NCBI GenBank assembly: GCA_043814055.1
Contig: JBDRKL010000007.1
Location: 1-64,000 of the forward strand
DNA: 64,000 nt
Direction: 5' to 3'
Origin: an archaeon
GTDB lineage: Archaea; Undinarchaeota; Undinarchaeia; Undinarchaeales; JBDRKL01
Positions 3,687-51,287 of the stretch are shown here, one piece after another. How positions within the stretch are numbered: position 1 is the first letter of the stretch; every line of letters begins with the position of its first letter. The notes under the pieces were generated by a model, which saw only the letters and a list, made by a program, of their open reading frames with translations, made no database searches and had not been told where the DNA came from. The position numbers were made by a program, and so were the translations under genes.

Positions 3687-3765
3687 TCCGTTCTTGAGGT
3701 GAACTACCCCAGCCCTGATGGGGCGGCTTTATAGGAAGTATTACGTTTAGAGGGGGATATAGGGA

Positions 3766-13349: not shown

Positions 13350-14639
13350 GTGGGAGAATGGATGTACCAAGAAGAAATACTCAATTACTATTCTAGGTCA
13401 GAGGTTCAAAAAGCGATTCTTGAGTTCGCTGAGGACCGCGAGCTTGTGCCTGTTATGAGCTCCGGGGCTTTCGGCACAAGGCCGAATGCTGTTTATTATG
13501 AGAAGGATGTTGAGTCAATGATTAAGCAGGGCGCGGTTTCTTTCCACGGTTCTGTGGAGCGGTGGAGCAACCCGCTCGCGCTGAAAACCGAGGCGCCGCG
13601 CTCCGAGCTGGACGCGCTGAGGAAGGGCTGGGACCTGATTGTGGATATTGACTGCGACCGCGGTTTGGAGTATTCAAAAAAGGCAGCGCTCGTGATTATT
13701 AAAACATTTGATCAGGTTGGAATTGAAAATTATTCTATTAAATTCTCAGGAAATAGGGGCTTCCACATCGGAGTGCCGTTTGAGGCTTTCCCTGCAGAGA
13801 TTATGGGCATTGGCGCGATAGAGAAGCAGTATCCGAAAGTGCCGAAAATGATTATTGAATACCTCTCTGATTACGTCAAGGATGATTTGAAAAAAGAGTT
13901 CAAGGAGGACCCGGACAAGGTGCTCAAGCTGGACGCGGCAGTGGCTGCGTCGCGGCACCTGATTCGTCTGCCCTACTGCCTGCACAGGAAGACCTGGAAG
14001 GTGAGCCTACCGATTGGAGTAGACGAGATTGAGGGCTTTGACCCTGAGATGGCGGATGCTAAAAACGTTGAAGTCAAGAGGAAATTCCTGGGCAGGAAGG
14101 TTAAGGAGAATGAAGCGCTTGAGCTTTTGCAGAGCGCGGTGTTCTGGCAGTCCAAGAAGGACCCTGGGAAAGTCAAGGAGATTTCCGGCGAATTCCAAGT
14201 GCCGAGGAACGCGATTAGACCTGAGTTCTTCCCGCCGTGCATAAAGAACATTCTTGCAGGGATTAGCGACGGCAGGAAGCGGTCTGTATTTTTGCTCATC
14301 GCGTTCCTGCACCACATCGGGTGGATGCAGGATGATGTTGAGAAACTGCTCGCAGCGTGGAACTCAAAAAACCGTGACCCGCTGAGGGACTCGCAGATAA
14401 AGGGCGGTTTCAGCCACCAGTATGGGAGGAGCAAGCCGCAGATGGCGCCGAACTGCAAGAATAGTGCGTATTACATGGATATTGGTGTCTGTACGCCTGA
14501 CGAATTCTGCAAAAATATAAATAACCCGGTGACGTACACCCTGCGCAAGGCAAAAGGAAAAAGAGGGGAGAAGAAGGCGCCAAGGAAAAGGAAAGAGCAC
14601 AGCATGCGCAAAGAATCAGAGCAGTTTGAGGAGCTATGA
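13350..14639 (+). CDS. Fused archaeal primase PriS-PriL (DPANN type)
   Basis: PriS motifs GWDLIVDID, KFSGNRGFH, RHLIRLPY.LH followed by the PriL Fe-S part FFPPCI...DGRKR...APNC...C.PDEFC..INNPV; start may be ATG 13362. Confidence 0.92.
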   Translation: MGEWMYQEEILNYYSRSEVQKAILEFAEDRELVPVMSSGAFGTRPNAVYYEKDVESMIKQGAVSFHGSVERWSNPLALKTEAPRSELDALRKGWDLIVDIDCDRGLEYSKKAALVIIKTFDQVGIENYSIKFSGNRGFHIGVPFEAFPAEIMGIGAIEKQYPKVPKMIIEYLSDYVKDDLKKEFKEDPDKVLKLDAAVAASRHLIRLPYCLHRKTWKVSLPIGVDEIEGFDPEMADAKNVEVKRKFLGRKVKENEALELLQSAVFWQSKKDPGKVKEISGEFQVPRNAIRPEFFPPCIKNILAGISDGRKRSVFLLIAFLHHIGWMQDDVEKLLAAWNSKNRDPLRDSQIKGGFSHQYGRSKPQMAPNCKNSAYYMDIGVCTPDEFCKNINNPVTYTLRKAKGKRGEKKAPRKRKEHSMRKESEQFEEL

Positions 14640-14732
14640 TGATGGCGGGGCTTCGGCAAAGCCGAACGCCCCAAGCGGAGGTCTCGGAACCGCAGGTTCT
14701 GAGTGCGCAAAGAATCAGAGCAGTTTGAGGAG
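14605..14732 (+). repeat. 29-bp perfect direct repeat of the primase 3' end flanking a hairpin insert
   Basis: TGCGCAAAGAATCAGAGCAGTTTGAGGAG at 14605-14633 and 14704-14732; between them GGGGCTTCGGCAAAGCCGAACGCCCC and CTCGGAACCGCAGGTTCTGAG. Confidence 0.92.
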
Positions 14733-14737
14733 ATATA

Positions 14738-15304
14738 ATGGCAGACGAGAAAAAAGCAGTAATCACATTTGAAACTATACGGGAAATTCAGCGCAGTGAG
14801 CGCAGGACCGAGCGGCTTTTTGGGCTTGACGACGGATTTTATCAGAAGATTAGCAAATACCTGAGCAGGAAAGGGACCAATGATGATGAGATTAGGAACG
14901 CAAAGTATGCGCTGAGGGATATTGTTGAGCGCAGGGAGCGGAAGATAATGAACCTTGCGCTTTCAACTGTAAGGACAAAAGACAAAGCAAACCTGAGTGA
15001 CATGACCCAGCGCGAGAAAAGGCTCTTTGACTCGCTTATTGAAACATTAAATGCGTATAGGGTTGAGGTTGTTGGGGAGGAAAAGAAAGCGGAAGAAGCG
15101 CCAGAAGAGGAAGAAGCTGAAGAGGATCAGGAAGAGACCAAGTTCATGAAGATTGAGGTGCTTGAAAATCTGCCAGAAATTGTTGGGGCAGACATGGAGA
15201 ACTACGGGCCATTCAAGAAAGGCGAGATTGTTGAGCTTCCGGAGGACAACGCGCTGATATTCATTGACAGTGGGAAGGCAGAGAGCTGCGATAGCAGCTC
15301 ATGA
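14738..15304 (+). CDS. GINS complex subunit (Gins51-type)
   Basis: ITFETIREIQRSER, DIVERRERKI..LA, C-terminal B domain LPEIVGADMENYGPFKKGEIVELP; conserved primase-GINS-L44e order. Confidence 0.9.
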   Translation: MADEKKAVITFETIREIQRSERRTERLFGLDDGFYQKISKYLSRKGTNDDEIRNAKYALRDIVERRERKIMNLALSTVRTKDKANLSDMTQREKRLFDSLIETLNAYRVEVVGEEKKAEEAPEEEEAEEDQEETKFMKIEVLENLPEIVGADMENYGPFKKGEIVELPEDNALIFIDSGKAESCDSSS

Positions 15305-15380
15305 GATTCGCGAAGTGAATCAAAGAGAAAGCGAAATAACAACCTTTTTATACCTCAAGAGGTAGTAGAGTAAGACACAA

Positions 15381-15665
15381 ATGAAAATACCAAAAGAAAT
15401 GAGTATATTTTGCAAGTGGTGCAAAACGCACACCATTCATACTGTGGAGAGTGTCAAAAAGAAGCAGAAGCGAACGCTCTCGCACGGGCAGAGGCGGTTC
15501 GACAGGAAGATGACAGGCTATGGGTCTTTCCCAAAGCCGATGCCGGACGGCAAAAAGCCGACCCAGAGGCAGGATCTCAGGTACAAGTGCAAGGACTGCA
15601 AGAATTCAATAACAAGGCAAAAGACATACAGGACAAAGAAATTTGAGGTGATAGATAATGCCTAA
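15381..15665 (+). CDS. rpl44e: 50S ribosomal protein L44e
   Basis: MKIPK...FCKWCKTHTIH...GYGSFPKP...KKPT...RYKCKDC. Confidence 0.95.
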   Translation: MKIPKEMSIFCKWCKTHTIHTVESVKKKQKRTLSHGQRRFDRKMTGYGSFPKPMPDGKKPTQRQDLRYKCKDCKNSITRQKTYRTKKFEVIDNA

Positions 15666-15831
15666 AACCAAGAGCAAGTTTATCAGGGTTCAGTGCCAGT
15701 GCGGCTATGAGCAGACTATTTTTGGCACTGCAAGTTCCGAGGTCAAGTGCGCTCAGTGCGACACCATTCTAGCGGTGCCAACTGGCGGCAGGACTGACAT
15801 AAAGAGCAAGATTGTCGCGATTTTGGATTAA
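15658..15831 (+). CDS. rps27e: 30S ribosomal protein S27e
   Basis: Hand translation MPKTKSKFIRVQCQCGYEQTIFGTASSEVKCAQCDTILAVPTGGRTDIKSKIVAILD; not in the ORF track. Confidence 0.93.
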   Translation: MPKTKSKFIRVQCQCGYEQTIFGTASSEVKCAQCDTILAVPTGGRTDIKSKIVAILD

Positions 15832-15895
15832 TATTTTTATAATTTTGAAGAATGGCGTAAAAGCTTAATAAGTAGCTAACCCATAGATTTTTGTT

Positions 15896-16684
15896 ATGCA
15901 AACCAAACCCAAGAAACCGGAGTATCCAGAACGCGATGAATTGGTAATCGGCACTGTAAAGTCCGTCTTTCCGTACGGCGCGTTCATCAAGCTTGAGGAG
16001 TACCCGGGCAAGGAGGGTATGATTCACGTCTCCGAAATCTCGCACAAGTGGGTAAAGAACATCAAGGACCACGTGAAAGAGGGCGAGCGCATAGTCGTAA
16101 AGGTTCTCAGGATAGACCTGGAGCGAGGTCATATTGACCTGTCGCTCAAGAGCGTGAAAGCGATTCAGAAGAAGCAGAAAATTGAGGGGCAGCAGCAGGA
16201 ATCAAGAGGCATAAAGCTGGTTGAGCTTGCAGGGGAGCGGCTGAAAGACAAGGGAAAGATTGAAGAAGTTTGCAAAAAACTTGAGGAACATTTTGACTCT
16301 GTGTACACAGCGCTTGAGAGCGTTGTGATTGAAAATGAAAAAGCGCTGAAAGAGGTTGGGCTTGATGCTAAGTGGGCAGATGAGCTCACAAAAATAGCGC
16401 AGGAGCACATAAAGAAGCCGAGCGTTAGCATAAAAGCCACGATTGAAATCAACTCAACTGCATCAGACGGGATAGAAGTCATAAAAAATGCACTCTCAGA
16501 CGCGATAAACGCGAGCAAACAGAAAGAAGTTGAACTGGAGATAACATACCAGGGCACTCCGAAATATAGGATTTCAATAATCGCTCCTGATTACAAGAAG
16601 GCTGAAAAATCACTTGAATTATTCTCAAACGAGCTGGAAGCGAAAATAAAAAGCAAGGGCGAATTTGAGGTAAAGAGGGATTAG
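15896..16684 (+). CDS. eif2a: Translation initiation factor 2 alpha subunit
   Basis: YPERDELVIGTV..V.PYGAF..LEEY, EGMIHVSEIS, GHIDLSLK, GTPKYRI...APDYK.AE. Confidence 0.97.
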   Translation: MQTKPKKPEYPERDELVIGTVKSVFPYGAFIKLEEYPGKEGMIHVSEISHKWVKNIKDHVKEGERIVVKVLRIDLERGHIDLSLKSVKAIQKKQKIEGQQQESRGIKLVELAGERLKDKGKIEEVCKKLEEHFDSVYTALESVVIENEKALKEVGLDAKWADELTKIAQEHIKKPSVSIKATIEINSTASDGIEVIKNALSDAINASKQKEVELEITYQGTPKYRISIIAPDYKKAEKSLELFSNELEAKIKSKGEFEVKRD

Positions 16685-16685
16685 A

Positions 16686-16847
16686 GTGAAGCTTTTATTC
16701 TGCAAGAAGTGCGGGGAATACACGATGCAGAAACAATGCCCAAAGTGCAATGCTGATACTATAACGCCTGAGCCCGCGAAGTACTCTCCAAGCGACAAGT
16801 ATGGGGAGCAGAGGAGAAAGTATAAAAAGATGCAGGGGGAAGGTTAA
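16686..16847 (+). CDS. nop10: H/ACA RNP protein Nop10
   Basis: Hand translation from GTG: MKLLFCKKCGEYTMQKQCPKC...PAKYSPSDKYGEQRR; canonical position after eif2a. Confidence 0.92.
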   Translation: MKLLFCKKCGEYTMQKQCPKCNADTITPEPAKYSPSDKYGEQRRKYKKMQGEG

Positions 16848-16911
16848 CAAAAAGGAATAGTCCTGCCTCCGGAGTGAAACGGAGGAGTGCAGGACAATTT
16901 CCAGGGGTAAT

Positions 16912-17721
16912 TTGACGCCTATGGATACATTTGTGAAATATATGGGAAAGAAGCCGAAGCTTAACAATCCGATTCTAATTGAGGGTCTGCCAGGCTTTGG
17001 CCAGGTTGGCCGCCTCGTTGCAGAGCATCTTGTCAAGGAGTTTAAGGGCAAGGAGTTCGCCGAGCTTTACAGCCCGCACTTCCCGCCGCAGGTTATGATA
17101 GAGAACAACGGGATGATAGACACAATCACAAATAATTTTTATCACATTAAAATACCCAAGGTTTCAAGAGACTTGCTAGTGGTGGTCGGCGAGGCCCAGG
17201 CCGCGACGATTACGGGGCAGTACGAGATTTGCGACAAGATACTGGACGTTGCCGAGGAGTTTGGAGTCAAGGACATTATAACAATTGGCGGCTATGCAAT
17301 GGGAAAACTGCTCAAGACTCCGAAGGTTTACGGCGCTGCGAACCACAAGTCGCTAATAGCAGAGTACGAGAAGCACAAGGTGCAGTTCAAGAGCAAGGTT
17401 AGCCGGGGCGGCATAGTTGGCGCATCCGGGCTTTTACTCGGCTTGAGCCAGCTCAGGAACATGAAGGCAGTATGCCTGATGGGCGAGACGCCTGGACATC
17501 CTCTTTTGATTGATGCGAAAGCAGCAGAAGCTGTTATTGAAGTGCTCGCAAAGCGATTAAAGACAAAGATACCAATGGGCGAACTTGACAAGAGGGCGAG
17601 GGAACTAGAAAAGTTCCGTGTCGGGCTTGAGACAATGATGAAGAAAATGGCTCAGAAAAAAGAGAGCCAGGAAGAGGAAGGCGAACAAATGCCTGAGGAA
17701 GCGCTCAAGTATATTGGGTAA
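16912..17721 (+). CDS. PAC2 family proteasome assembly chaperone
   Basis: LIEGLPGFGQVG, LYSPHFPPQV, ITIGGY, IVGASGLLLG, CLMGET; probable start ATG 16921. Confidence 0.92.
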   Translation: MTPMDTFVKYMGKKPKLNNPILIEGLPGFGQVGRLVAEHLVKEFKGKEFAELYSPHFPPQVMIENNGMIDTITNNFYHIKIPKVSRDLLVVVGEAQAATITGQYEICDKILDVAEEFGVKDIITIGGYAMGKLLKTPKVYGAANHKSLIAEYEKHKVQFKSKVSRGGIVGASGLLLGLSQLRNMKAVCLMGETPGHPLLIDAKAAEAVIEVLAKRLKTKIPMGELDKRARELEKFRVGLETMMKKMAQKKESQEEEGEQMPEEALKYIG

Positions 17722-17794
17722 TTATTCGGCACTGGCTTTTAGCAATTAACATTTAGAAAAATACTAATAGCCAACTGCTAACACCTAACTGCTT

Positions 17795-19018
17795 ATGAAA
17801 ATTTACGCAGACCTGCATATCCACTCCAAATATAGCAGGGCGACCAGCAAGGACCTGACACTTGAGAATCTGGAGAAGTATGCAAGGATTAAGGGAATTG
17901 GGCTTCTTGGAACTGGGGATTTCACGCACCCGAAGTGGCTTGGGGAATTAAAAAAATTGGATGAAGCAGATGGAGTTTTAAAAACCAAATCGGATTTTCC
18001 TTTTATTCTGCAGGCTGAGATTGCAAATATTTATTCAGAGGCAGGGAAAGTGAGGAAGATTCACAATATTATTCTCGCGCCGAGCATTGAAGTTGTAGGG
18101 CAGATTAACGCGTTTCTTGAGACAAAAGGAAATTTGGAGGCAGACGGCAGGCCGATTTTTGGAAAGATGAACTGCGCAGAGCTCGTGGAAGAGCTGATGA
18201 GCATTTCAAGGGATATTGAATTGATTCCAGCGCACACGTGGACACCCTGGTTCAGCATTTTTGGGTCAATGTCAGGTTTTGACTCTGTGGAGGAGTGCTT
18301 TGGAGACCAGGCAAAGCACATTCATGCGCTTGAGACTGGCCTGAGCTCTGACCCTGAGATGAACTGGCGGGTTAGCTCATTGGATAAATATAACTTGATT
18401 TCAAATTCTGACGCGCACTCGTTCTGGCCCTGGAGGATTGGCAGAGAATGCAACGTGTTTGACATTGATTTGAGTTATGAAAATGTGATAAAGGCAATTC
18501 GCACAGGGAAAGGGTTTGTTGAGACCATTGAAGTTGACCCGGCGTATGGGAAATACCATATTGACGGGCACAGGAACTGCGATTTCTGCACTGAGCCTGG
18601 GAAAATAAAGGGTGATGTGTGCCCGAAGTGCGGGAAGAAAATGACAATTGGCGTGCTTCATCGGGTTGAGGAGCTCGCGGACAGGAAGCCGGGCTATGTG
18701 CCTAAGGGCAAGCCGGACTTTAGGAGAATGCTGCCGCTTTCAGAGATAATTTCAATGAGCACTGGGGTGAAGCAGATGCACAGCAAAAAGGTTATGGGCA
18801 TTCATGAGAAGCTGATTGGAGAATTCAAAAACGAGTTTGCTGTTTTACTCAATACGTCTGAGGGTGATTTGAAGAATATTGTTGATGAGAAATTGGCCGG
18901 GCTTATTTTGAAAAACCGGATTGGAAAAATTAAGGTTAAGCCGGGTTATGACGGGGTTTATGGGGAGGCTGTGTTTGAAAAAACTAAAGAAGGGCAGAAG
19001 AATCTTGAGGAGTTTTAA
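17795..19018 (+). CDS. PHP-domain endonuclease Q family protein
   Basis: ADLHIHSKYSRATS, GTGDFTHP.W, PAHTWTPW, ETGLSSD, SNSDAHS, GKYH, Zn ribbon, GVLHRVEELAD, PGYDGVYG. Confidence 0.9.
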   Translation: MKIYADLHIHSKYSRATSKDLTLENLEKYARIKGIGLLGTGDFTHPKWLGELKKLDEADGVLKTKSDFPFILQAEIANIYSEAGKVRKIHNIILAPSIEVVGQINAFLETKGNLEADGRPIFGKMNCAELVEELMSISRDIELIPAHTWTPWFSIFGSMSGFDSVEECFGDQAKHIHALETGLSSDPEMNWRVSSLDKYNLISNSDAHSFWPWRIGRECNVFDIDLSYENVIKAIRTGKGFVETIEVDPAYGKYHIDGHRNCDFCTEPGKIKGDVCPKCGKKMTIGVLHRVEELADRKPGYVPKGKPDFRRMLPLSEIISMSTGVKQMHSKKVMGIHEKLIGEFKNEFAVLLNTSEGDLKNIVDEKLAGLILKNRIGKIKVKPGYDGVYGEAVFEKTKEGQKNLEEF

Positions 19019-19020
19019 GT

Positions 19021-20337
19021 TTAGGCGAATTTGAAGATGCACCCTGAACTATCATCGTATCTTGAATAAATTTTGCCTTCCGGCGGGTTTGCCTTGCAGA
19101 CAGCAATTTTATCCTTTAGTGATTCCCCACTGTCCTCACATATGCAGCTGCCGCTTAAGAGGTGTGTTGCTATTTGGTTTTCAGCTTTGCACCTTTCATC
19201 ACAGCGGTTTATGGAAGCATCGTCTGTTGAATCAAATGACTTTATCAGGCAAGTCTTATCCGCCTTCCTTTCGCCGTCCCGGTGCTTCGGCTGGCCATAT
19301 GAATTGAGTTGTGTCCAGGCGATGTCCCTGCAGGATTCGTGAATATCTTCATCAGCTCCTCCCTCTTCTTCATAATCGTCAGACGGGTCAACAGCTCCGA
19401 AGAGTATCCTGCAGCGCTCTATCTGCTCCGCAGTTCCTGTAACGCCCATCTTTGCACTGGTTGAGTCATATTCCTTGTAGTGATAAGCAACGTCAGCGTT
19501 TATGGTGCAGAAGTCCTTTATCATTGAGGGAACATTGCCAGTGTATTTTAGGCTTGCAATTTTGAGCGCGGACTTTGAGCCTGCGCTCAGGGATATGTTG
19601 CCGAGTTGTTCCTCAGTTATTTTATTGCCGATTTCTTCCATGGTATCGCTGTCAACAAAAATGCACGGACCCTGGACTAACAGGTCAATGCTCTCTATTT
19701 TGCCCATTCCTTCCTCGCCAACCTGGCCGTCGCCAAGGTTTTCAAACATTACGCGAATGTCAAATGTGCGGCCGATTTTGGTGCCAGCTATCACAACCGG
19801 CTCGGTCTGGAGTGCCTCTATGCGCACTTGCACCGGGCCTGCGCTCGGGTGGTTCTCGCCCTCTTCCTTGAAGAGGCCTTGATTTCGCATAACCTCGTCC
19901 TCTGAGACTAGCAGAAGTTTTGCCCAGCCCTCAGAAGTGTAATCATAATCAACAACAACTGCGAGAGTGCTGCTGGTCGGGTCGCAGTTTGCTCGCAGGT
20001 CCCAGACCAGGCTTGCAGTATCGCCTGCTGTGCATATTGTAAGGTCTGGAGGCGTCATTTTTGATACTGATTGGGTTTCCTCCCCAACTTTGAAGCCTCC
20101 GTGTGCCCAGAGGCGCGCCTTTATGTTTGTTGCCTCTGCATTGCCCCTGTTCTGCAAGTCCACCCTGAGCTGTATCTCGTTTCCAACAGGTATGAGGTCG
20201 TAGCTAGGTGTTACGCTAAGTATGGATATGCCTTCCTTTTGGGACACCTCAAGAGGGCACTGCTCAGCGCCACTGATGCAACCTGACATAAACAGGACTA
20301 GAATAAGTATTACCGAGAGTTTGTATGTTGGCTTCAT
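19021..20337 (-). CDS. Lipoprotein-like surface protein, paralog 5, with C-terminal Cys-rich module
   Basis: FMSGCISG lipobox-like; shared Ig-like core (LQNRG..A, YDY.S, SAGPV, F.N.G.G, YHY); RCDERC...SGSCIC. Confidence 0.8.
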   Translation of the reverse strand: MKPTYKLSVILILVLFMSGCISGAEQCPLEVSQKEGISILSVTPSYDLIPVGNEIQLRVDLQNRGNAEATNIKARLWAHGGFKVGEETQSVSKMTPPDLTICTAGDTASLVWDLRANCDPTSSTLAVVVDYDYTSEGWAKLLLVSEDEVMRNQGLFKEEGENHPSAGPVQVRIEALQTEPVVIAGTKIGRTFDIRVMFENLGDGQVGEEGMGKIESIDLLVQGPCIFVDSDTMEEIGNKITEEQLGNISLSAGSKSALKIASLKYTGNVPSMIKDFCTINADVAYHYKEYDSTSAKMGVTGTAEQIERCRILFGAVDPSDDYEEEGGADEDIHESCRDIAWTQLNSYGQPKHRDGERKADKTCLIKSFDSTDDASINRCDERCKAENQIATHLLSGSCICEDSGESLKDKIAVCKANPPEGKIYSRYDDSSGCIFKFA

Positions 20338-20338
20338 C

Positions 20339-21328: not shown

Positions 21329-21363
21329 GATTGTGATATTTCACTTGAATGTTTATATAAGTA

Positions 21364-22902: not shown

Positions 22903-22904
22903 TT

Positions 22905-23861: not shown

Positions 23862-23866
23862 TTTAT

Positions 23867-25222: not shown

Positions 25223-25275
25223 TTTTAATCCTCCGAGATTAGGTTATTATTAGGTAGGGGTTGTTGTTTATATAT

Positions 25276-29468: not shown

Positions 29469-29503
29469 TACTTATTAAAACGCTTCTAATATAAATATAT
29501 TAT

Positions 29504-32096: not shown

Positions 32097-32117
32097 TATA
32101 CTGAATTAGTTTAGGGT

Positions 32118-33113: not shown

Positions 33114-33130
33114 ATTAGGAGTAATGCTTA

Positions 33131-33886
33131 ATGACCCTAACACTAATCTCACTCGGGCTTTGGAACGAAAAATCAATGACACTTGAAGCGCTGAAAGAAG
33201 CGAAGAAGTGTTCAAAACTTTATTCAGAACAGTATACGTCGCGCTTGTTTGGTTGTAGTGCAACAAAACTTGAGCAGAAGATTGGGAAGAAGATTGAGAT
33301 TCTGCCGCGGGAGAGAGTTGAGGATTCAAAATGGCTGATTGCTGAGGCGAAGAAAAAGAAAATCGGGCTTTTGATTGTTGGCGACGCAATGGCTGCGACA
33401 ACGCACGCGGACTTTTTGATTGAGGCGAAGAAGGCGAAAGTCTCTGTGCGGGTAATACCAGGGACTTCAATTTACACAGTTGCTTCAGGCTTGGCTGGAT
33501 TGCAGATTTATAAGTTTGGAAGGGCAACTACGCTGACTTTCCCGGATGAGAAATTCCCAGTGCGGAGCCATTATGATGTTATAAAATATAATAAGGGCGT
33601 TGGATTGCACACTTTGGTTCTGCTTGATATTCAGAATACAAAATACATGACTGCGAATGAGGGGATGAAAGTTCTGCTTGAGCTGGAGAAGAAAAACAAG
33701 GAGGGAGTTTTCAAGCCGGACACAAAGATTGTTGTGGTTGCGCGGGCCGGTTCTGCTAAGCCGAAAGTTAAATATGGACCTGTGAGCAAATTAGTTAAAA
33801 TGGACTTTGGCGGGCCGCTGCACACGATTATAGTTCCGGGGAAACTGCATTTTAGGGAGGAGGAGGCGTTGGAATTATGGGAATGA
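33131..33886 (+). CDS. dph5: Diphthine synthase
   Basis: LISLGL, EQYTS, VGDAMAATTH, GLQIYKFG, GLHTLVLLDI, DFGGPLH.IIVPG.LHF.E.EAL. Confidence 0.96.
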   Translation: MTLTLISLGLWNEKSMTLEALKEAKKCSKLYSEQYTSRLFGCSATKLEQKIGKKIEILPRERVEDSKWLIAEAKKKKIGLLIVGDAMAATTHADFLIEAKKAKVSVRVIPGTSIYTVASGLAGLQIYKFGRATTLTFPDEKFPVRSHYDVIKYNKGVGLHTLVLLDIQNTKYMTANEGMKVLLELEKKNKEGVFKPDTKIVVVARAGSAKPKVKYGPVSKLVKMDFGGPLHTIIVPGKLHFREEEALELWE

Positions 33887-34097
33887 TTACAAAACAGGGC
33901 TTCGGCGAAGCCGAACGCCCTCGCTTTACCTCCGCAAGCAGGCGGAGTGAGGAGGCGTTAGCACTATGGAAATAATTACAAAAAGGGGCTTCGCGAGCAA
34001 AGCGAGCGAATGCCCCCTGCTCTACCTCCGGGAGCAGCCGGAGCCGGGGAAGTTGCATTTTAGGGAGGCGGAGGCGTTGGAGTTGTTCAAGGCATAA
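33836..34097 (+). repeat. Tandem array of dph5 3'-end copies separated by two homologous hairpin elements
   Basis: Gene end PGKLHFREEEALELWE* (33836-33886); element 33887-33948; copy EEALALWK* (33949-33975); element 33976-34043; copy PGKLHFREAEALELFKA* (34044-34097). Confidence 0.9.
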
Positions 34098-34167
34098 ATT
34101 TTGCATAATTAAAAAAAAGGTAACTTTATAAACCATAAAAGTGTAGTAAATTTGAGGTAATGACAGA

Positions 34168-35067
34168 ATGAACCAAACACTTTTGATTGCAGCACTAGGA
34201 CTATTAATTATCGCCGGACTTTTGAGCGGAACAGATTATAATATGGATAATTCCGACACAGACACTAGCATAACTGGACAAGTAACTGCTAGTACAACAG
34301 AGACCACAGCGTATACTTGCTGCTATTACAAAAGTGGAAGCAAATACTATTATGCCATTGTAGGAAACCCGACAAAATCCAACGGGTGCAATGACAAATA
34401 CAAATATGCTAGCGGCAATGGTTTCAACTATTGCGGCAAGAATCTTGGAACATCCGTATGCACTTCTTCACAATCAGCCACCAGCAAGAACTGTTGTACT
34501 GCCTGGTGCACTAAGAAAGGCATGACCATATCCTCAAATTCTGGAGCTTCCTGTACTTGCAAAAAAACAGTTGTAACAGTGCCTAAGCAATATGGTTCCG
34601 GTGAAGGAACTCCTGCTAAATGTACTATGTGTTATGTAAATATGAATACTGGTAATGAGGAGAAGAACGGCCATTGCGGTACTACTTGTCCTGCGGAACG
34701 AACAATCTGGGATGGCCAAATTTGGCTGCGTGGCCTAAGCGGTAAATATGATATAGTTAAAATTCCAAGACCCGCGGTTAAGATGACAGTATGTGGTGTT
34801 ATTGGTGGAGAGAACTGGGCTTGTGTTGACAAAGCTAAAGTAAGATTTTACTACAAAGAGAAGGGGGGAGATGAGTGGATTAAAATAGCTGACAAGTGGA
34901 TTACTGGAAGACATAATAAAGGTTGTGTAGATGTGTCGTTAGACTATGTAAATATTGATGCAGTAAGAGGTAAAATAGTTGGCACTGCAAAGAAGGATAT
35001 GTGGGATACTGGGGACTCTTGTAGCTATCTAGATGAACTATACATCAAGAGTATTTATGTAGATTAA
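34168..35067 (+). CDS. Secreted Cys-rich protein (defensin-like module plus GGE-C module)
   Basis: N-terminal hydrophobic signal, ITGQV, YTCC...NCCTAWCTKKG...SCTC, CGVIGGENWAC...CSYLDEL. Confidence 0.85.
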   Translation: MNQTLLIAALGLLIIAGLLSGTDYNMDNSDTDTSITGQVTASTTETTAYTCCYYKSGSKYYYAIVGNPTKSNGCNDKYKYASGNGFNYCGKNLGTSVCTSSQSATSKNCCTAWCTKKGMTISSNSGASCTCKKTVVTVPKQYGSGEGTPAKCTMCYVNMNTGNEEKNGHCGTTCPAERTIWDGQIWLRGLSGKYDIVKIPRPAVKMTVCGVIGGENWACVDKAKVRFYYKEKGGDEWIKIADKWITGRHNKGCVDVSLDYVNIDAVRGKIVGTAKKDMWDTGDSCSYLDELYIKSIYVD

Positions 35068-35231
35068 GTATAGTAGCATCAAAGATGAAACTGATGTTCT
35101 TTAACTATGGAACTAACTGAAGATTATGTCCTTGGGCTCTTGAAAAAAAACGAGACAGTCTGTGAAGAGAACATATTGACACTATTTGAATCATAAACTA
35201 TTTATATAGGTTCATATACATTTTATATAAA

Positions 35232-35813
35232 ATGTTAAAGAAATTATTTACATCAGGTAGTAGGGTGGAGATACTAAAAGAACTCCTGTTCAATCCGCAA
35301 GGAGATTTCTACCTTAGTGACCTTGCTAGAACCACAGGAACTGCTCCAATACAGACCAGCAAGGAGCTTGAAAATCTTGAGTCATTAAATCTGGTTGAAA
35401 GGAAGAAAGTTGGAAAGCTCACTTTTTATAGCATTAACAAAAATGCTCCGATATATGAAGATATCAAAAACATTTTTTTGAAAACGGACAGTTTGGGCAA
35501 TTTTTTGAGAACACGGTTGAAGAATTATGAAATAACTCATGCTTTGATTTTTGGAAGCTTTGCAGCAGGCGAAGAAAGAAAAGACAGTGACGTGGATTTG
35601 CTCATAGTGGGAGATATAAACGAGAATGCTTTAGTCAAGACAGTGAGAGAATGCGAGAAGAGCTTGAAGAGAGAAATAAATTATATACTCTGGAATAGAA
35701 AAGAGTTTGAGAAAAGAGCCAGAGAAGGTCATCATCTTTTGAGGGATATAAAGGAAAAGTCAATGATAATGCTGGCAGGAGACGAGAATGAATTTAGAGA
35801 AGCTATTAAGTGA
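35232..35813 (+). CDS. wHTH-fused minimal nucleotidyltransferase (MNT antitoxin)
   Basis: N-terminal winged helix (LFTSGSRVEIL...ELENLE..NLV); FGSFA.G...DSDVDLLIVG. Confidence 0.9.
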   Translation: MLKKLFTSGSRVEILKELLFNPQGDFYLSDLARTTGTAPIQTSKELENLESLNLVERKKVGKLTFYSINKNAPIYEDIKNIFLKTDSLGNFLRTRLKNYEITHALIFGSFAAGEERKDSDVDLLIVGDINENALVKTVRECEKSLKREINYILWNRKEFEKRAREGHHLLRDIKEKSMIMLAGDENEFREAIK

Positions 35814-36228
35814 TAATTATATAGAAGAAATAGGAGTTGACAAAGAACTCACAAAGCGGGCTTTGAAAATAGCCGAGCGGGACTTGGAAGCTGCAAAGGA
35901 GAATTGGGAGGGGGGGCAGTACGACTGGACACTAGCAATAGCATATAATTCCATGCTACAGGCAGGACGTTCTCTTATGTTTTCAAAGGGCTACAGACCA
36001 GCAGGAGCATACAGACACGTTTCTGTTTCTTTGTTTGTGGACACACTTGAGGAACTTCATGAGTTCAGCACTCATTTTGATCGGCTGAGGAAAAAACGCC
36101 ATAAAGCAGTTTATGAACAGGCAGAAATTGTGTCAGAAGAAGAAGCACAGCAAGCGATTAACTGGACAACAAAATTTATTTCAAAAATAAAGGAGATTAT
36201 TGGTGGTGATTTAAATGGAACTAACTGA
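35788..36228 (+). CDS. HEPN domain protein (putative toxin)
   Basis: AERDLEAA, AYNSMLQAGRSL, H, RKKRHKAVYE; overlaps the MNT gene. Confidence 0.9.
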   Translation: MNLEKLLSDNYIEEIGVDKELTKRALKIAERDLEAAKENWEGGQYDWTLAIAYNSMLQAGRSLMFSKGYRPAGAYRHVSVSLFVDTLEELHEFSTHFDRLRKKRHKAVYEQAEIVSEEEAQQAINWTTKFISKIKEIIGGDLNGTN

Positions 36229-36475
36229 AGATTATGTCCTTGGGCTCTTGAAAAAAACCGAGACAGCCCTGGTGAGCGTTGAGATTGTTGAAGAAGGCGG
36301 GCAGAGGGTCTTGGATATGGCCACGCGCTACCTTGAGGATGCAATTCACTTCTTTGAAAAGGGCGACCTGGAGAAGGCGATGGCAGCGGAGGAATACTCA
36401 CATGGGCTTTTGGATGGCGGAGTTGGGACTGGAGCACTAAGAGTAATTCAAAACGAGGACTTGTTTGTATTCTAA
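36215..36475 (+). CDS. DUF357 family protein
   Basis: DMATRYLEDAIHFFEKGD...A..YSHGLLDGG; commonly a dph5 neighbour in archaea. Confidence 0.85.
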   Translation: MELTEDYVLGLLKKTETALVSVEIVEEGGQRVLDMATRYLEDAIHFFEKGDLEKAMAAEEYSHGLLDGGVGTGALRVIQNEDLFVF

Positions 36476-36545
36476 AGCCGAGCTGATGCGAGGCAGTTTT
36501 TCGTCAACGTTTTTGGACAAATTGCAAAGAAAAAGGTTGCTGCCA

Positions 36546-36632
36546 GAGGAATACTCACATGGGTTGATTGATGGAGCTGTAGGAACTGGAGCTTTGAAAG
36601 TAATTCAGAACGAAGATTTGTTTGTATTCTAA
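36546..36632 (+). pseudogene. Diverged duplicate of the last 28 codons of the DUF357 gene
   Basis: EEYSHGLIDGAVGTGALKVIQNEDLFVF* versus EEYSHGLLDGGVGTGALRVIQNEDLFVF* (36389-36475); mostly synonymous differences. Confidence 0.9.
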
Positions 36633-36670
36633 TAATTATATTTATATAGAGAGAGCACTACTTCTAGAGT

Positions 36671-37819
36671 ATGAAAACAAAGCTCTTCCTGGGCACAGTA
36701 CTAATTTCTCTACTTACTCTTGTTAACGCGGCTTTTGCAGCCTGGATTTTAGACCCAAGCAATCCTATGAATTCGATCTCAAGCAAGGCAATGGGTTACA
36801 TATGGTTTATTTGGATAATGGTTCTTTGTTACTGGCTAGTTGACAGGCACTTCTCAAAGAAGATGGAAGAAGCAGGAATAGACGCTAAGTTTGGCGGACC
36901 AAACCTTCGCGCAGGAATTTTCGCAATAGTACTTATCATGATGATGATATCAGAATATGTTGACCTTCCAATTGGTCTGATAACCATGGGGATGAGCTTC
37001 ATAGTTCTATGGGGCGTTACTGTGTTAATAATAAACATTTATATTTACATTGAAAAATACAAGAAGAGCCCGGAAGTTGCTGAGGATGAGTTCCTGGAAG
37101 ACACCAAGCACAGGGCCGGCAAGAAAGAGAGACGTGCAATGAACGCGGCAAGGGGAATGGAGCAGGAAGAGAAAGCAACCATTGTCAAGATATTTGACCT
37201 TCTCAAGAAAGGTGAAATTCTGGCATACCTTAGAGGTGCGCTTGAACAATCCAAAAGGAGCCACGTTGACATAGTCAAAGAACTCAAAGAGGTTTACACT
37301 GAAAGCTCAACGGCTGGTGCAAACCAGAAGACAATAAAGGATTTGGAGACCGGCGAGATAGCATTTAAGCGCGCGGAGAAGAGGCTGAACAAAATGAAAG
37401 ACACAGCGCTCAGCAGTGAATTCACGCTTTTACACCAGTCTGCGCGGAAAATTTCCAAGAAGATATCAGACATAACCGCCAGGAGGATGGAAATCGGGGA
37501 AAATGAAGAAAAGGTAATACTGGAACTTGCCACAATTGTCAGGTATGGAGAGAAACACACAAAGAATATTATGGCTGATATGGAGGACAAGAAAAGTGAG
37601 GGTTACAAGTCACACGCAAAACAGCTGGAAGGGCTCAAAGAGCTTCATCACTTGCTGATAAAATTGGCAAAAGAGCTTGAGGTTGAAATGATGTGGGACG
37701 CTAAGGTGGAGAATTATACTTCAACCCGCAGGGAGAGGCGAACCAGTGAAAAGGCAGGGGAAGAGGGAAGCAAACCATCTGATACCAACGAAGACGAAGA
37801 AATAAAAGATTGGGATTAA
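36671..37819 (+). CDS. Membrane protein with long cytoplasmic coiled-coil
   Basis: Signal plus about 3 TM helices, then a charged helical region. Confidence 0.75.
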   Translation: MKTKLFLGTVLISLLTLVNAAFAAWILDPSNPMNSISSKAMGYIWFIWIMVLCYWLVDRHFSKKMEEAGIDAKFGGPNLRAGIFAIVLIMMMISEYVDLPIGLITMGMSFIVLWGVTVLIINIYIYIEKYKKSPEVAEDEFLEDTKHRAGKKERRAMNAARGMEQEEKATIVKIFDLLKKGEILAYLRGALEQSKRSHVDIVKELKEVYTESSTAGANQKTIKDLETGEIAFKRAEKRLNKMKDTALSSEFTLLHQSARKISKKISDITARRMEIGENEEKVILELATIVRYGEKHTKNIMADMEDKKSEGYKSHAKQLEGLKELHHLLIKLAKELEVEMMWDAKVENYTSTRRERRTSEKAGEEGSKPSDTNEDEEIKDWD

Positions 37820-37865
37820 AACTGAGGCTCCCATCCGGAAGCCCTGGGTAAGGAGGACTAAAAAA

Positions 37866-38597
37866 ATGGCAGACGAAGAACTTAACAAACAATATCAGCC
37901 ATACAGTGAAGCGGCGCAGAACGGCGAGTTCCACGAACTTAGCGAAAAGCATGTTAATAATCTTGAAACGGCTTACAAGAAAATAGAGGAATTCATCGCA
38001 GAGGAAAAAGAGTTTATGGGTCAGGTACACGAGGCGATTGCAAAGCCAGTCGCATTTCATCACCACGATTTTGTATCAGTTATCGGAAACGCAGAAAAGC
38101 ACCTTGCGCAGGTAGAGAAATTCACTAAAATACTTGAGAAGGACACTGGGAAAACTCCAAATGCAGAAGAGGCTGTGAAGGCGTATGAGGAAATTGAAAA
38201 AAACCTCGCAGAAATTGACGGAGATATCCGAAAGTCTATGATGACTATGGTGCTAATCACGAGAGTCTATGCAGGTTATTATAGAGTCAGAGTTGCGTTG
38301 GACAAGTATCTTGACTATCTTGGCGCAGGGCTGAGAGACCAGGACATTGACCAGAAGGATAAGGACAAAATCCTGGAACTGATAAAAACGCACAAAGAGA
38401 ACCTTGCGAAAGTAGACCATATCATAAAGACACTTGTGTTTCTCTCAAGAGTGTATGCACCAACAGGAGTACTATATACACTAGCGGATGAGATGACTGA
38501 GGTGTGTAAGGCAGAGGGTGTAGAGATAGAGAGCAAACGCATATCTCGCCACGGAATGGGCACCGAGTTCAAGGGCGCTGGAGAGGGCGCGGAATAA
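37866..38597 (+). CDS. Hypothetical helical protein
   Basis: AGGAGG RBS upstream; long charged helices. Confidence 0.7.
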   Translation: MADEELNKQYQPYSEAAQNGEFHELSEKHVNNLETAYKKIEEFIAEEKEFMGQVHEAIAKPVAFHHHDFVSVIGNAEKHLAQVEKFTKILEKDTGKTPNAEEAVKAYEEIEKNLAEIDGDIRKSMMTMVLITRVYAGYYRVRVALDKYLDYLGAGLRDQDIDQKDKDKILELIKTHKENLAKVDHIIKTLVFLSRVYAPTGVLYTLADEMTEVCKAEGVEIESKRISRHGMGTEFKGAGEGAE

Positions 38598-38633
38598 GAA
38601 AGCCTTAAATAAGTGGAGGTTCATTAAAAAACC

Positions 38634-39272
38634 ATGAAAAAGATATTACTTGCGTGTACGGCAAGCGCATCGTTTTTGTTTATTCTGAGTGCTGTATTTG
38701 CAGCATTTGACATCGCAACCATAAATGACATGTCGTTCCAGATTGGAATGTTCATGGGCGTTATGATGGGTCTTCCAAGCGTAATGGCAGCGGGAAACCA
38801 TTTCAGCGGCGTAAAAGCTGATGATACAAAATTGATTGATCCAAAGGTTTGGAAATATATGATAATTGGTATAATGGTATTTACAGTCATAGGCGGATTC
38901 ATTGCAGAAGATGCAGATGTGATGGGACAGTGGATGTGGGGACTAGTCGCGGGATTAATCATTACAATGATTTTAGGCAGTGTAGTCTTCCACTTTGTGC
39001 ATCAGGCTAAATCGAGCAGCGAGGGTTCTGGGGAAGCGAGGAAACAACTGAGCAAGGTAAAAACCGCTGAAGAACTAAAGAAGAAATATAGAAAAGAGGG
39101 ATATGAAATAAAAGAAAAAACACCGGCGAGCAAGGACCGGGACTTCTATGAGAGGGTTTTTAAGGAAGGGCTTCAGCGTCCTATAGGATTACAAGGCGGC
39201 CAACAACAGCCTTTTAACGTGCAGCAGACCATGCCTGCAAGTGCAGAGCTAGCAGAGGAGCAGGGGGCATAA
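38634..39272 (+). CDS. Membrane protein with charged C-terminal tail
   Basis: About 4 hydrophobic helices; GGAGGT upstream. Confidence 0.7.
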   Translation: MKKILLACTASASFLFILSAVFAAFDIATINDMSFQIGMFMGVMMGLPSVMAAGNHFSGVKADDTKLIDPKVWKYMIIGIMVFTVIGGFIAEDADVMGQWMWGLVAGLIITMILGSVVFHFVHQAKSSSEGSGEARKQLSKVKTAEELKKKYRKEGYEIKEKTPASKDRDFYERVFKEGLQRPIGLQGGQQQPFNVQQTMPASAELAEEQGA

Positions 39273-39274
39273 AA

Positions 39275-39697
39275 ATGGCAAATCAAATAGACAGCATTTT
39301 GAAGAAGTATGTTGACACAATGGTATATTTTGGAAACAAGATAGAAGAGAAGCATAACTCTATAGCCACCCATAGTTCTATGAGAAGTACTGAATATGAA
39401 TCTCTGCTTCAGAATTTTGATAGGATATTAGGGGGTTATGACAAGCACGTTGTTGCTCCGATTGCTGATTTGTATATGTGCTGCAAAAATCCTGATTTTA
39501 AAATGAAACACGAAAAAGAACTTGGCAGGATTGCTGCAGAACTCAATAAGCATCACGCAGAGCTTGATAAGGCAACAAAGGGAGTACTCAATGCGAGTGT
39601 GCCGGATAAGTTAAATGATGCAGGACAAGCGCTTGCTGGTGTAATTCTTAACTTAGAGGGTACTATAAATAATATCAAAAAACTCCTCGCTAAATAA
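39275..39697 (+). CDS. Hypothetical helical protein
   Basis: Tightly coupled to its neighbours. Confidence 0.65.
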   Translation: MANQIDSILKKYVDTMVYFGNKIEEKHNSIATHSSMRSTEYESLLQNFDRILGGYDKHVVAPIADLYMCCKNPDFKMKHEKELGRIAAELNKHHAELDKATKGVLNASVPDKLNDAGQALAGVILNLEGTINNIKKLLAK

Positions 39698-39891
39698 TGA
39701 TACCATCTCTAATTGTAATGGGCGCTTTGGATTTAATAGCAGGATTATTTATGTTGAGCCTGCAATATAGAAATGGTTTTGAAGCAATGTTCTTCAGCGC
39801 TCCATACTGGTTTGTGTTTTATTTGGGCGTGGCAATTATGATAAAGGGCGCGTACTCAGTTGCCTACGGCGCGTTCGGGAAAGGGTGGTGA
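39697..39891 (+). CDS. Small two-TM protein (paralog of 39893)
   Basis: ALDLIAGL...YLGVAIMIKGAYS. Confidence 0.7.
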   Translation: MIPSLIVMGALDLIAGLFMLSLQYRNGFEAMFFSAPYWFVFYLGVAIMIKGAYSVAYGAFGKGW

Positions 39892-39892
39892 A

Positions 39893-40150
39893 ATGTTTGA
39901 GATTTCCTTTCTGATTGTTTTCATAATGTCTGTCGTGCTCGCAGGGATGTTTGTACTCCGCACGCGGATGAGCATGTTTCTGCTCGCCTCGTTTGACCTG
40001 CTCGTTGGGCTAGTGCTGATGGGGCTTGGGCAGAGCGGAACAATTCAATTCATGTTTTCAAAAGTTCCAACTGCTTGGGCTTATTATGTTGGATTAGCAG
40101 TTATGCTGAAAGGGATTTACTCAATTGCACTTGGGTTTGTGAAAAGGTAA
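39893..40150 (+). CDS. Small membrane protein (paralog of 39697)
   Basis: SFDLLVGL...YVGLAVMLKGIYS; ATG at 39893. Confidence 0.7.
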   Translation: MFEISFLIVFIMSVVLAGMFVLRTRMSMFLLASFDLLVGLVLMGLGQSGTIQFMFSKVPTAWAYYVGLAVMLKGIYSIALGFVKR

Positions 40151-40242
40151 AGTTTGTGGTAGGTAGTGTTTATTATTACTACAAACTACCGACTATCAAC
40201 TTCAATAACAAAAACCCTTAAATACTATGCTCTTCACGGGAA

Positions 40243-40536
40243 ATGTATAGGTGGGAGATAATGGCTGTTGAAGTAATAACCGCAATGCAGTATTTTGTAG
40301 GGCACCAGGTGCCGCTTTTCTTACTAATATTTGGATTGCTTTACACCGCGATGGCTTTCGTTTTCAAGCCGCTGGCGCAGCTCGCTGGCGTGCCGATTGG
40401 TGTTCTTTGCATAGCAACTTCGCTCGCATGGTTCATAGTTAGCGGGGGCGGCATAATGGCCATCCCGGTTGACGTGATGCAGGTTGTGGGTGTCGGAATG
40501 GTTGTGCTTGTTGTAGGAAAGGTGTTTGCGGGGTGA
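40243..40536 (+). CDS. Small three-TM protein (paralog of 40678)
   Basis: VPLFLLIFGLL...SLAWFIV; start may be 40261. Confidence 0.7.
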   Translation: MYRWEIMAVEVITAMQYFVGHQVPLFLLIFGLLYTAMAFVFKPLAQLAGVPIGVLCIATSLAWFIVSGGGIMAIPVDVMQVVGVGMVVLVVGKVFAG

Positions 40537-40676
40537 CAAGTGTAATCGCGGACTTCTCAGAGCGAAGAGCCGCAATGGGAGGGACAGACGCACGAAGTGC
40601 GTCGTACGTTTGGAGCTTTGCTCCAAACTGTATCGGAACCGTTAGGTTCCGATTGGGGAAGGTGTTTGCAGGTTAA
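40516..40676 (+). repeat. Multi-hairpin insert flanked by a duplicated gene end (GKVFAG*)
   Basis: GGAAAGGTGTTTGCGGGGTGA (40516-40536) and GGGAAGGTGTTTGCAGGTTAA (40656-40676); hairpins GACGCAC-GAA-GTGCGTC, GTTTGGAGC-TTT-GCTCCAAAC, ATCGGAACC-GTTA-GGTTCCGAT. Confidence 0.88.
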
Positions 40677-51068: not shown

Positions 51069-51287
51069 ATGAAACTTTTTGACAACAGAAAGGGCATATC
51101 TATTGGGATAAATATGATAGTAGTGTTAGCAGTCGCCCTTGTTGTCTTGATTGTCATTACTGGCTGGTTCCTTGGAGGATTCGGTGAAATAGGCGGTGCG
51201 ATACAGAACGTGTTCGGCGGAGCATCGGAACAGGCGAACGGCACTCACGTTGGCGAGCTTATTAACAATACAGGATGGGGTGGATAA
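51069..51287 (+). CDS. Short type IV pilin
   Basis: RKG/ISIGINMIVVLAVALVVLIVITGWFLGGF. Confidence 0.85.
   Translation: MKLFDNRKGISIGINMIVVLAVALVVLIVITGWFLGGFGEIGGAIQNVFGGASEQANGTHVGELINNTGWGG

Follow-up and report, generated by a model that had tools for sequence, protein, structure and literature searches.

Genes of an archaeon of the order Undinarchaeales are recurrently followed, right after the stop codon, by a short non-coding insert and then by a second copy of the last codons and stop of the same gene. This layout was studied in a 64,000-nucleotide stretch (the window), which forms the first 64 kb of contig C7 (JBDRKL010000007.1) of a metagenome bin (980 kb, 14 contigs, 82% complete). 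It had been described in a first-pass annotation of the window at four genes: primase, dph5, DUF357 and an open reading frame (ORF) starting at position 40243. All four genes carry it, at the coordinates given there. The layout is genuine and has firm statistical support; it is genome-wide and clade-restricted, and the kind of event is known but poorly understood. Our tentative reading, which we hold to be possible rather than probable, is that structured modules coding for no protein were inserted at the DNA level with long target duplications of variable length, and that recombination with diverged relatives followed.

Below, the gene end still in use upstream of an insert is called the live end and the copy downstream of it the displaced end. 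The window's genome (G000) is the sole representative of its family among the genomes compared. Elements were also found in three genomes of a sister genus (G002, G006 and G010). Each of these four genomes is 78-82% complete.

Four gene ends of the window are followed by an insert and a displaced gene end

All parts of the four sites lie on the + strand. The gene names primase, GINS, dph5 and DUF357 were backed by Pfam, in the case of dph5 by way of named homologues. The primase gene (13350-14639, + strand) is a PriS-PriL fusion with Pfam domains DNA_primase_S and DNA_primase_lrg; its product, one protein of 429 amino acids, thus combines the domains of the small and of the large subunit. The upstream repeat copy (14605-14641) is the live 3′ end of the gene; it includes the stop codon TGA and a copied ATG and is identical at 35 of 37 positions to the displaced end at 14704-14740. 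The 62-nucleotide insert between them (14642-14703) consists of a hairpin A module and of a TCGGAACC..GGTTC hairpin (fold z = -3.3 against shuffled sequences). The displaced end retains a compact stop/start overlap (TAATG) with the GINS51 gene (14738-15304, Pfam). In G006 no insert separates the two genes, and the stop of the primase gene overlaps the start of GINS as ATGA. A C/D-box small RNA was considered for the primase insert (ATGATGA ... CTGA) and dropped, the boxes being missing from the other inserts.

Two inserts are stacked behind dph5 (33131-33886; Pfam TP_methylase, diphthine synthase according to named homologues). The live end (33836-33886) terminates in ...ELWE-stop. Insert 1 (33887-33947) is made of hairpin A and pseudoknot B and is matched at 33892-33947 by the covariance model of the A+B element described below (72 bits; fold z = -4.6). 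It is followed by a middle displaced end (33948-33984), made of 28 nucleotides up to a stop codon (33948-33975, EEALALWK-stop) and of a copied 9-nucleotide sequence, TTACAAAAA; the 8-9 nucleotides of this sequence after the live stop, at 33887-33895, thus recur after the stop of the middle copy. The younger of the two insertions accordingly shows a duplication of 37 nucleotides. Insert 2 (33985-34043) is a second A+B element with compensatory changes as compared to insert 1 (covariance-model match at 33981-34043, 67 bits; fold z = -3.2), and the two inserts are homologous, with 76% identity over 68 columns. Finally comes the oldest displaced end (34044-34097, ...ELFKA-stop). Its first part, 34044-34084, is identical to 33836-33876 of the live end at 37 of 41 positions, and the two diverge beyond. 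Independent insertions at one gene would account for such a stack of former gene ends.

The live end of the DUF357 gene (36215-36475, Pfam DUF357) covers positions 36389-36475 and is identical at 71 of 87 positions to the displaced end at 36546-36632, from which it differs by nine synonymous and three conservative changes in 29 codons. Here the insert (36476-36545) consists of 70 A+T-rich nucleotides of the F2 family (..GTTTTTGG..AAAGAAAAAGGTTG) that fold no better than shuffled sequences (z = +0.7). The displaced end is joined to the ancestral downstream promoter region; in G006, DUF357 runs directly into the same downstream gene and has no insert.

At the fourth site, the ORF 40243-40536, for which neither a Pfam family nor a homologue in G006 or G010 was found, ends in GKVFAG-stop (live end, 40516-40536). 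The displaced end (40656-40676) encodes the same GKVFAG-stop, with its stop one base ahead of the next ATG; it matches the live end at 17 of 21 positions, all three differing codons are synonymous, and another stop codon is used. The alignment score alone is at chance level, and the site is supported by its layout and by the identical peptide. The 119-nucleotide insert (40537-40655) forms four stem-loops, of which the last is TCGGAACCGTTAGGTTCCGA (fold z = -6.1).

The inserts had been described as usually GC-rich stem-loops that share sequence between unrelated genes. Four of the five inserts fold better than shuffled sequences (z from -3.2 to -6.1), and the A+T-rich DUF357 insert is not rich in hairpins. 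Sharing was confirmed: bases 7-30 of the primase insert match dph5 insert 1 at 23 of 24 positions, and the TCGGAACC..GGTTC hairpin occurs both at 14681-14701 and at 40632-40652.

For these sites of the window, empty sites were available in distant orthologues only. None of 33 other dph5 loci shows the repeat, and in G006 primase/GINS, dph5 and DUF357 are all free of inserts. The closest relative of the dph5 protein in the protein search, P0008, is 80% identical and the next ones reach at most 66%; the nearest named relatives are Undinarchaeales and Naiadarchaeales bins (55-59%), and relatives in a metagenome scan reach 63% at most. At the window sites, the displaced copies retain the ancestral connection to the next gene.

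Duplicated gene ends are frequent in the window's genome

In order to measure how often a gene is followed by a copy of its own end, the last 120 nucleotides of each of 1015 called ORFs were compared with the following 450 nucleotides, reverse-complemented and reversed sequences serving as controls. At a score of at least 28, a downstream copy was found for 26 of the 1015 ORFs, as compared to 0 in the reverse-complement control and 1 in the reversed control. At a score of at least 32, 17 ORFs remained and both controls gave 0. Three of the four window sites rank among the strongest of the scan. The recurrence proposed in the first-pass annotation is therefore borne out by a genome-wide excess. 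Its weaker cases, the ORFs ending at 3697 and 7033, GINS and a nop10-like ORF, were not retained, their scores of 16-20 being within the control range; hairpins nonetheless follow some of these genes.

The same scan of G006 gave 1 of 814 ORFs at a score of at least 32, with 1 in each control, and that of G010 gave 6 of 720, the sixth of which overlies a cluster of tRNA genes and elements. Four of the five G010 ORFs inspected do not have this layout (two internal protein repeats, one low-complexity sequence and one repeat 428 nucleotides off), and the gene for aIF2-gamma is the only protein gene among the five that does.

Other repeats were seen in the window's genome. They include a perfect 83-nucleotide direct repeat with a spacing of 28 nucleotides (C4:75958-76151), a repeat with a period of 180 nucleotides reaching a contig end (C13:47429-47655), and a complete intron-bearing tRNA-Asn gene lying between 58-nucleotide direct repeats identical at 52 of 58 positions (C12:34858-35143).

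The inserts form dispersed families, one of them with a conserved fold

Sequence comparison and covariance modelling showed that the inserts form families genome-wide. At least three dispersed families are present: the A+B element, the A+T-rich F2 hairpin and the TCGGAACC hairpin. No ORF lies within the inserts. The A+B element, represented by the two dph5 inserts and by one half of the primase insert, is 55 nucleotides long. It has two hairpins, first GGCTTC..GAA.GCC and then CTCCG..CGGAG. The loop of the second pairs with the spacer ahead of this hairpin to give an H-type pseudoknot. Among 18 copies of the window's genome, 96.9% of the cells pair and double-sided changes occur in 9 of 20 pairs. 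Among 21 copies from the three sister genomes, gathered with a search model from which the pseudoknot had been left out, 98.5% pair and double changes occur in 13 of 20 pairs. In both sets all four pseudoknot pairs covary. G-U cells number 3 in the 18-copy set and 0 in the 21-copy set. This near-absence of G-U pairs hints that the fold matters in DNA, or that template correction keeps the two arms complementary.

The A+B covariance model matched 26 times in the window's genome and 4-14 times in each of the three sister-genus genomes; among the 17 genomes of the phylum searched in all, the 13 others gave no match. Rfam gave no match at gathering score in the window and none up to E = 10 for 11 element copies; a single match with E = 1 was obtained at the primase site (RRE, 9 bits). 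A pattern scan of a larger genome collection returned 74 stretches, with 3 in archaeon UBA543 and 1 in a Candidatus Undinarchaeota archaeon record. The other 70 are single matches, nearly all bacterial with one in a Thermoplasmata archaeon, and are presumed, unchecked, to be due to chance. F2 was found by BLASTN at two further gene-end inserts (C4:51231-51275 and C10:96166-96210).

As for their position, one A+B copy (C9:26243-26298) lies inside an ORF, 20 of the 26 copies have the orientation of the upstream gene (direction not fixed), and a tRNA gene is the 5′ neighbour in 7 of 26, though the genome has 40 tRNA genes as compared to about 1000 ORFs. All three module families also occur in the long tRNA introns of the window's genome. 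Reversed A+B copies are present in the introns of tRNA-Arg, tRNA-Trp and an ARAGORN-predicted tRNA-Pyl, the F2 motif was seen by eye in the introns of tRNA-Gly and tRNA-Met, and the last hairpin of the 40537 insert is identical at 21 of 23 positions to C10:78724-78746, in the intron of tRNA-Ala(cgc). ARAGORN predicts introns in 18 of 40 tRNA genes, and 11 of these introns are 50-193 nucleotides long and made of the gene-end hairpin modules (examples of intron-bearing genes are C6:51029-51297, C12:152935-153119 and C4:126247-126427). The tRNA-Pyl(cta) at C12:115016-115203 is probably a mis-call. Splicing of the insert and one repeat copy through a bulge-helix-bulge was rejected, the motif being impossible to draw by hand at the tRNA sites; no formal scan was made.

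These features bear on the idea that the hairpin-plus-pseudoknot is an RNA copied into the genome by target-primed reverse transcription. The covarying pseudoknot, a fixed 3′ end behind a variable 5′ leader, duplications of variable length and the prevailing co-orientation with upstream genes all fit such a process. Yet G-U pairs are virtually absent, both orientations are seen, including the reversed copies in tRNA introns, and two G010 copies have similar 5′ ends. Given also the enzyme searches reported below, we consider retroposition highly improbable.

The duplication is made on insertion

To find out how the second copy arises, the genomes of G006 and G010 were rebuilt from stretches, to 745 kb and 659 kb respectively, and show synteny at 73% identity. 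Between them, 27 indels of 40-260 nucleotides were found, 23 filled in G010 and 4 in G006. Four of the 27 have flank repeats of 19-54 nucleotides, and at each of these the target is present once in the other genome. At three intergenic or tRNA sites of G010, the duplications measure 19-20, 54 and 30 nucleotides, and the single copy of G006 shows up as alignment overlaps of 18, 41 and 34 nucleotides. At aIF2-gamma, G006 has the empty site and G010 the filled one, where the duplication measures 30 nucleotides. A comparison of empty and filled sites in related genomes, proposed with the first-pass annotation, hence gave one target copy when empty and two when filled, and therefore the duplication was made in place at insertion.

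Most of the remaining G006/G010 indels correspond to other palindromic families, with a short duplication or none. Many imperfect palindromes of 80-130 nucleotides, belonging to such families, stand in G010 at gene junctions that are empty in G006 (23 sites); their units are, for example, GGCTAGTAGC/ACAAGCC or CAGTCGGTAG repeats.

Within the window's genome, a copy of the left flank (9-74 nucleotides) begins 0-5 nucleotides past the last base of the A+B element in 10 of 20 hits, and 6 of 20 hits have no flank repeat. Overall, the duplication spans 5-87 nucleotides within one family, with a different target and repeat length at each site. Among the duplicated targets are promoters, tRNA 3′ ends and operon junctions, the last with the stop codon of the first gene and the start codon of the second; duplications of tRNA 5′ ends and of non-coding targets occur as well. 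Several duplications of the window's genome are perfect (23/23, 20/20 and 15/15).

Particular junctions were seen at some sites of the sister genomes. Behind A+B elements of G006 and G010, the displaced tRNA 3′-end copies at loci L058, L063 and L076 begin with the same altered T-loop (GTTCGGAAC or GTTCGGAGC). The three loci concern three different tRNAs, the live T-loops of which differ from each other; the shared altered loop suggests a templated junction. Behind aIF2-gamma of G010 (C11:10875-12230), the displaced tail reads TGGTGA instead of the expected CAA-stop, which creates a GGTGA motif 8 nucleotides ahead of the start of the next gene, encoding a zinc-ribbon protein. This GGTGA is possibly a new ribosome-binding site that arose after coupling was lost.

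No mobility enzyme was found in the element-bearing genomes

The first-pass annotation had noted the lack of a transposase or recombinase in the window, which was borne out and extended to the element-bearing genomes by domain searches. RVT_1, Phage_integrase, TnpB, DDE_Tnp_1, Resolvase and IS110 domains gave no match in G000, G002, G006 and G010. Y1_Tnp and Cas1 (Cas_Cas1) gave none in G000, the only genome searched for these two. A RAYT/TnpA(Y1) gene, an IS110 element or a reverse transcriptase was accordingly not detected, within these scopes. Because RVT_1 was missed four times independently, a resident reverse transcriptase is unlikely in these genomes. Integration of the CRISPR array or casposon type was also rejected, G000 having no Cas_Cas1 and the repeats copying different genes.

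An enzyme might nevertheless be supplied from outside. The inserts would then be non-autonomous transposons, similar to miniature inverted-repeat transposable elements (MITEs), mobilized by a loose-stagger transposase or integrase encoded on an unbinned plasmid, on a virus or by a host partner. Discrete element ends, dispersed families and the preference for tRNA ends (7 of 26) are in favor of such elements, and IS1630 is a recorded case of a transposase with variable duplications, of 19-26 bp (PMC2853133). However, the 18-copy alignment has no terminal inverted repeats at the A+B ends, duplications vary from 5 to 87 nucleotides within one family, and the transposase, integrase and reverse transcriptase families searched have no match in the element-bearing genomes. 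Viral contigs gave a single weak pattern match (23 bits), taken as due to chance. This explanation is, in our opinion, improbable.

Live and displaced ends differ like alleles

The copies had been said to differ mainly at synonymous sites. This was verified over 12 pairs of live and displaced ends comprising 135 codons, with 33 synonymous and 8 nonsynonymous codon differences; third codon positions take 33 of the 48 base differences. The count comprised 11 of the 17 ORFs scoring at least 32, plus ORF 40243. Left out were three spurious ORFs over the same repeats (C13:17122, C4:82250 and C4:51024), C12:115176 and C10:117066, as well as C4:42635, which has a doubtful strand and frame: its + frame shows 1 synonymous and 12 nonsynonymous differences, and its inclusion would change the count to 34 and 20. 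With a null model in which the live copy is constrained and the displaced copy drifts freely, about 35% of the differing codons would be synonymous. The observed share is 80% (p = 2e-9), and therefore drift after a simple duplication cannot explain the differences.

The differences come in blocks. Identical blocks of 18-38 nucleotides lie beside the insert and are followed by blocks diverged by up to 32%. The mean relative position of the differences is 0.63 (z = 3.7), a value inflated by the fact that the left edge of the repeats is defined by similarity. Divergence varies from 0 to 18% across loci, and stop codons are unlike in 5 of 8 pairs. Some pairs show the mixed pattern that plain drift predicts: the live and middle dph5 copies differ by two nonsynonymous and two synonymous changes plus a change of stop, and at two non-coding duplications of G010 both copies have changed. 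A diversity-generating retroelement was rejected as the source of the mismatches, which affect each of the four bases and for the most part concern third codon positions, with no RVT_1 in G000.

Two explanations of these allele-like differences compete with later recombination. The first-pass annotation had proposed that the element arrives together with a replacement gene terminus, its insertion being guided by homology or by RNA. In this view, a piece of DNA of a diverged relative would bring the gene end of that relative along with the element, so that the live end would be foreign and the displaced end native. Either homology would guide integration on the side of the gene while the far side is joined illegitimately, or a small circle would enter in the Campbell manner. 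The synonymous bias speaks for such an origin, as do the three distinct and plausible dph5 termini stacked behind one another; in addition, the displaced aIF2-gamma copy of G010 agrees with outgroups at 2-3 positions at which the live copy has the derived state. As stated, however, the proposal is unsupported in view of the empty and filled sites, the perfect repeats and the duplicated non-coding targets, which include promoters and tRNA 5′ ends. An entirely foreign live end would not lead one to expect the identical blocks of 27, 38 and 29 nucleotides on the insert-proximal side. The dph5 terminus of the nearest relative, P0008, which ends in ...ELWS, resembles the live end and not the displaced one. 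Moreover, a different passenger would be required for each of dozens of targets, with one element family. We therefore regard co-arrival as unlikely. Since the differences are in blocks, later recombination with tracts ending at the insert fits better.

The second explanation accepts the layout as real and ascribes the differences to a contig that mixes co-existing strains. The genome is indeed a metagenome bin, in 14 contigs and 82% complete, and the differences are synonymous and blocky. Against this, the three dph5 ends would require three strains, strains differing by 13-32% within blocks are too far apart to be co-assembled, divergence is widely spread across loci, and the same pattern is found at aIF2-gamma in the separate G010 bin. 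Strain mosaicism is thus a very unlikely source of the pattern.

Other features of the window

Between dph5 and DUF357, the region 34168-36228 carries three genes. One encodes a 299-amino-acid protein of unknown function that has a hydrophobic stretch at its N terminus, and the two others form a nucleotidyltransferase (MNT)/HEPN pair. The dph5 and DUF357 genes abut or overlap directly in several relatives, and the MNT/HEPN-bearing stretch looks like a small inserted toxin-antitoxin-like islet. Further downstream, tandem small paralogous genes at 51069-51754 have a common hydrophobic N-terminal segment (77-nucleotide repeat, 75% identical). This repeat was rejected as a case of the insert phenomenon and corresponds to a gene duplication.

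Comparison with known systems

MITEs and the palindromic repeats of bacteria (REP/BIME with RAYT, Correia and RPE) are short, non-coding, hairpin-forming and multi-copy, and lie at gene ends. The modules described here resemble them in all these respects and by the occurrence of some copies in frame inside genes. They differ by having no terminal inverted repeats, no fixed short duplication and no partner transposase or Y1 protein (RAYT), and by long duplications that preserve the gene end. More precisely, a MITE would call for inverted-repeat ends and for a DDE_Tnp_1, TnpB, IS110 or Resolvase partner, which the four genomes lack, and does not agree with duplications of 5-87 nucleotides. For REP/RAYT or for IS200/IS605-derived PATE elements, G000 has no Y1_Tnp and target duplications are present. 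The absence of RVT_1 from the four genomes similarly separates the modules from SINE-like retroposons.

Homology-facilitated illegitimate recombination is known in transformable bacteria, and in fungal mitochondria, carboxy-terminal duplications accompany mobile endonuclease ORFs or double-hairpin elements. As in these cases, a foreign gene end may displace a native one and hairpin elements are involved. Unlike in these cases, there is no endonuclease ORF, and the identical insert-proximal blocks and perfect repeats favor a duplication made in place first.

Phages 21 and e14 at icd, as well as elements integrating at tRNA genes, enter a gene 3′ end and supply a replacement end with synonymous differences. 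The order of live end, insert and displaced end, the synonymous allele-like differences and the preference for tRNA 3′ ends recall such duplications of attachment sites. In contrast, the present inserts measure only 50-120 nucleotides, use dozens of targets per family, have variable repeats made by in-place duplication and no fixed att core, and are not accompanied by a Phage_integrase or Resolvase gene in any of the four genomes. A related example of attachment-site duplication at a tRNA gene is given in PMC3293823.

The first-pass annotation knew of no named element with this signature. This holds insofar as the modules fail the defining tests of the classes considered above. It does not hold for insertion with long target duplication, described by Furuta, Abe and Kobayashi in 2010 for bacterial restriction-modification genes with repeats of 46-423 bp (PMC2853133), which comes close. 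According to that paper, the repeats frequently overlap a gene 3′ end or a tRNA gene, and no archaeal case survived the authors' screen. What is common to both is inserted DNA without mobility genes, direct repeats of variable length, the longer of which far exceed transposon duplications, an overlap with gene 3′ ends or tRNA genes, and a repeat that is single-copy in the empty genome, as observed here at three G010/G006 sites and at aIF2-gamma. Only part of the present repeats is longer than the 30 bp above which that class is placed: those of 37, 37-51 and 87 nucleotides in the window are, as compared to 5-25 nucleotides elsewhere. The published insertions, as presented there, carry kilobases of protein-coding cargo and are single events found in bacteria only, whereas here a non-coding structured module of 50-120 nucleotides is inserted in a DPANN archaeon, in multi-copy families and with duplications of 5-87 nucleotides. 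New features are thus the tiny non-coding structured cargo, the multi-copy module families and the archaeal host. Literature searches returned no description of such elements; the main text of the Undinarchaeota paper (PMC7414124) is silent on them, and its supplements may list repeats.

A possible route of insertion and its meaning

In the reading that we favor, insertion with long target duplication followed by recombination, a module would be joined between two strand breaks as far apart as the duplication is long, and the gaps would then be filled. Housekeeping replication and repair enzymes may perform both joining and fill-in, with no dedicated transposase. Because about 92% of the genome is coding, the surviving insertions would be those whose duplication spans a gene boundary, or those located in an intron or in a tolerant coding stretch, as the observed layout suggests. 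The upstream copy would remain the live gene end and the downstream copy would preserve the former connection to the following gene. Part of one copy would subsequently be overwritten through homologous recombination with diverged relatives, which is consistent with the codon and block patterns. Recombination tracts would halt at the heterologous insert, and the copies would come to resemble alternative alleles.

Several observations weigh against this route. Its weakest part is the insertion step, which is a conjecture. The sharp 3′ boundary of the element looks enzyme-made, and no microhomology was seen at the few junctions inspected by eye. The co-orientation of 20 of 26 copies and the location of 7 of 26 beside tRNA genes indicate a targeting or strand bias that passive capture does not predict. 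In addition, efficient recombination would be needed between alleles that are 13-20% diverged in nucleotides. Finally, at a completeness of 78-82%, a gene may be missing from the genomes.

A broader and rather doubtful proposal can be formulated. The modules would spread without any element-encoded enzyme, folded DNA being inserted by the replication and repair machinery of the cell with a long fill-in duplication. The same process would seed archaeal tRNA introns, since the same three module families lie in the tRNA introns of this genome, and the duplicated ends would act as recombination handles that move cassettes of a module plus a terminus between lineages.

Decoy gene ends and tRNA fragments may mislead gene callers, and ORF calling here indeed gave several spurious ORFs across inserts. 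The arrival of archaeal tRNA introns is called an open question in a 2026 preprint (10.64898/2026.10.13.758758); the presence of the same modules in tRNA introns makes this question testable at their junctions. Essential genes such as those for primase, diphthine synthase and aIF2-gamma tolerate insertion because the duplication restores the gene end. The displaced ends would constitute a natural record of exchange between lineages in organisms that cannot be cultivated. If our reading is true, very small archaeal genomes with no recognisable transposase, integrase or reverse transcriptase possibly have a new route of DNA mobility.

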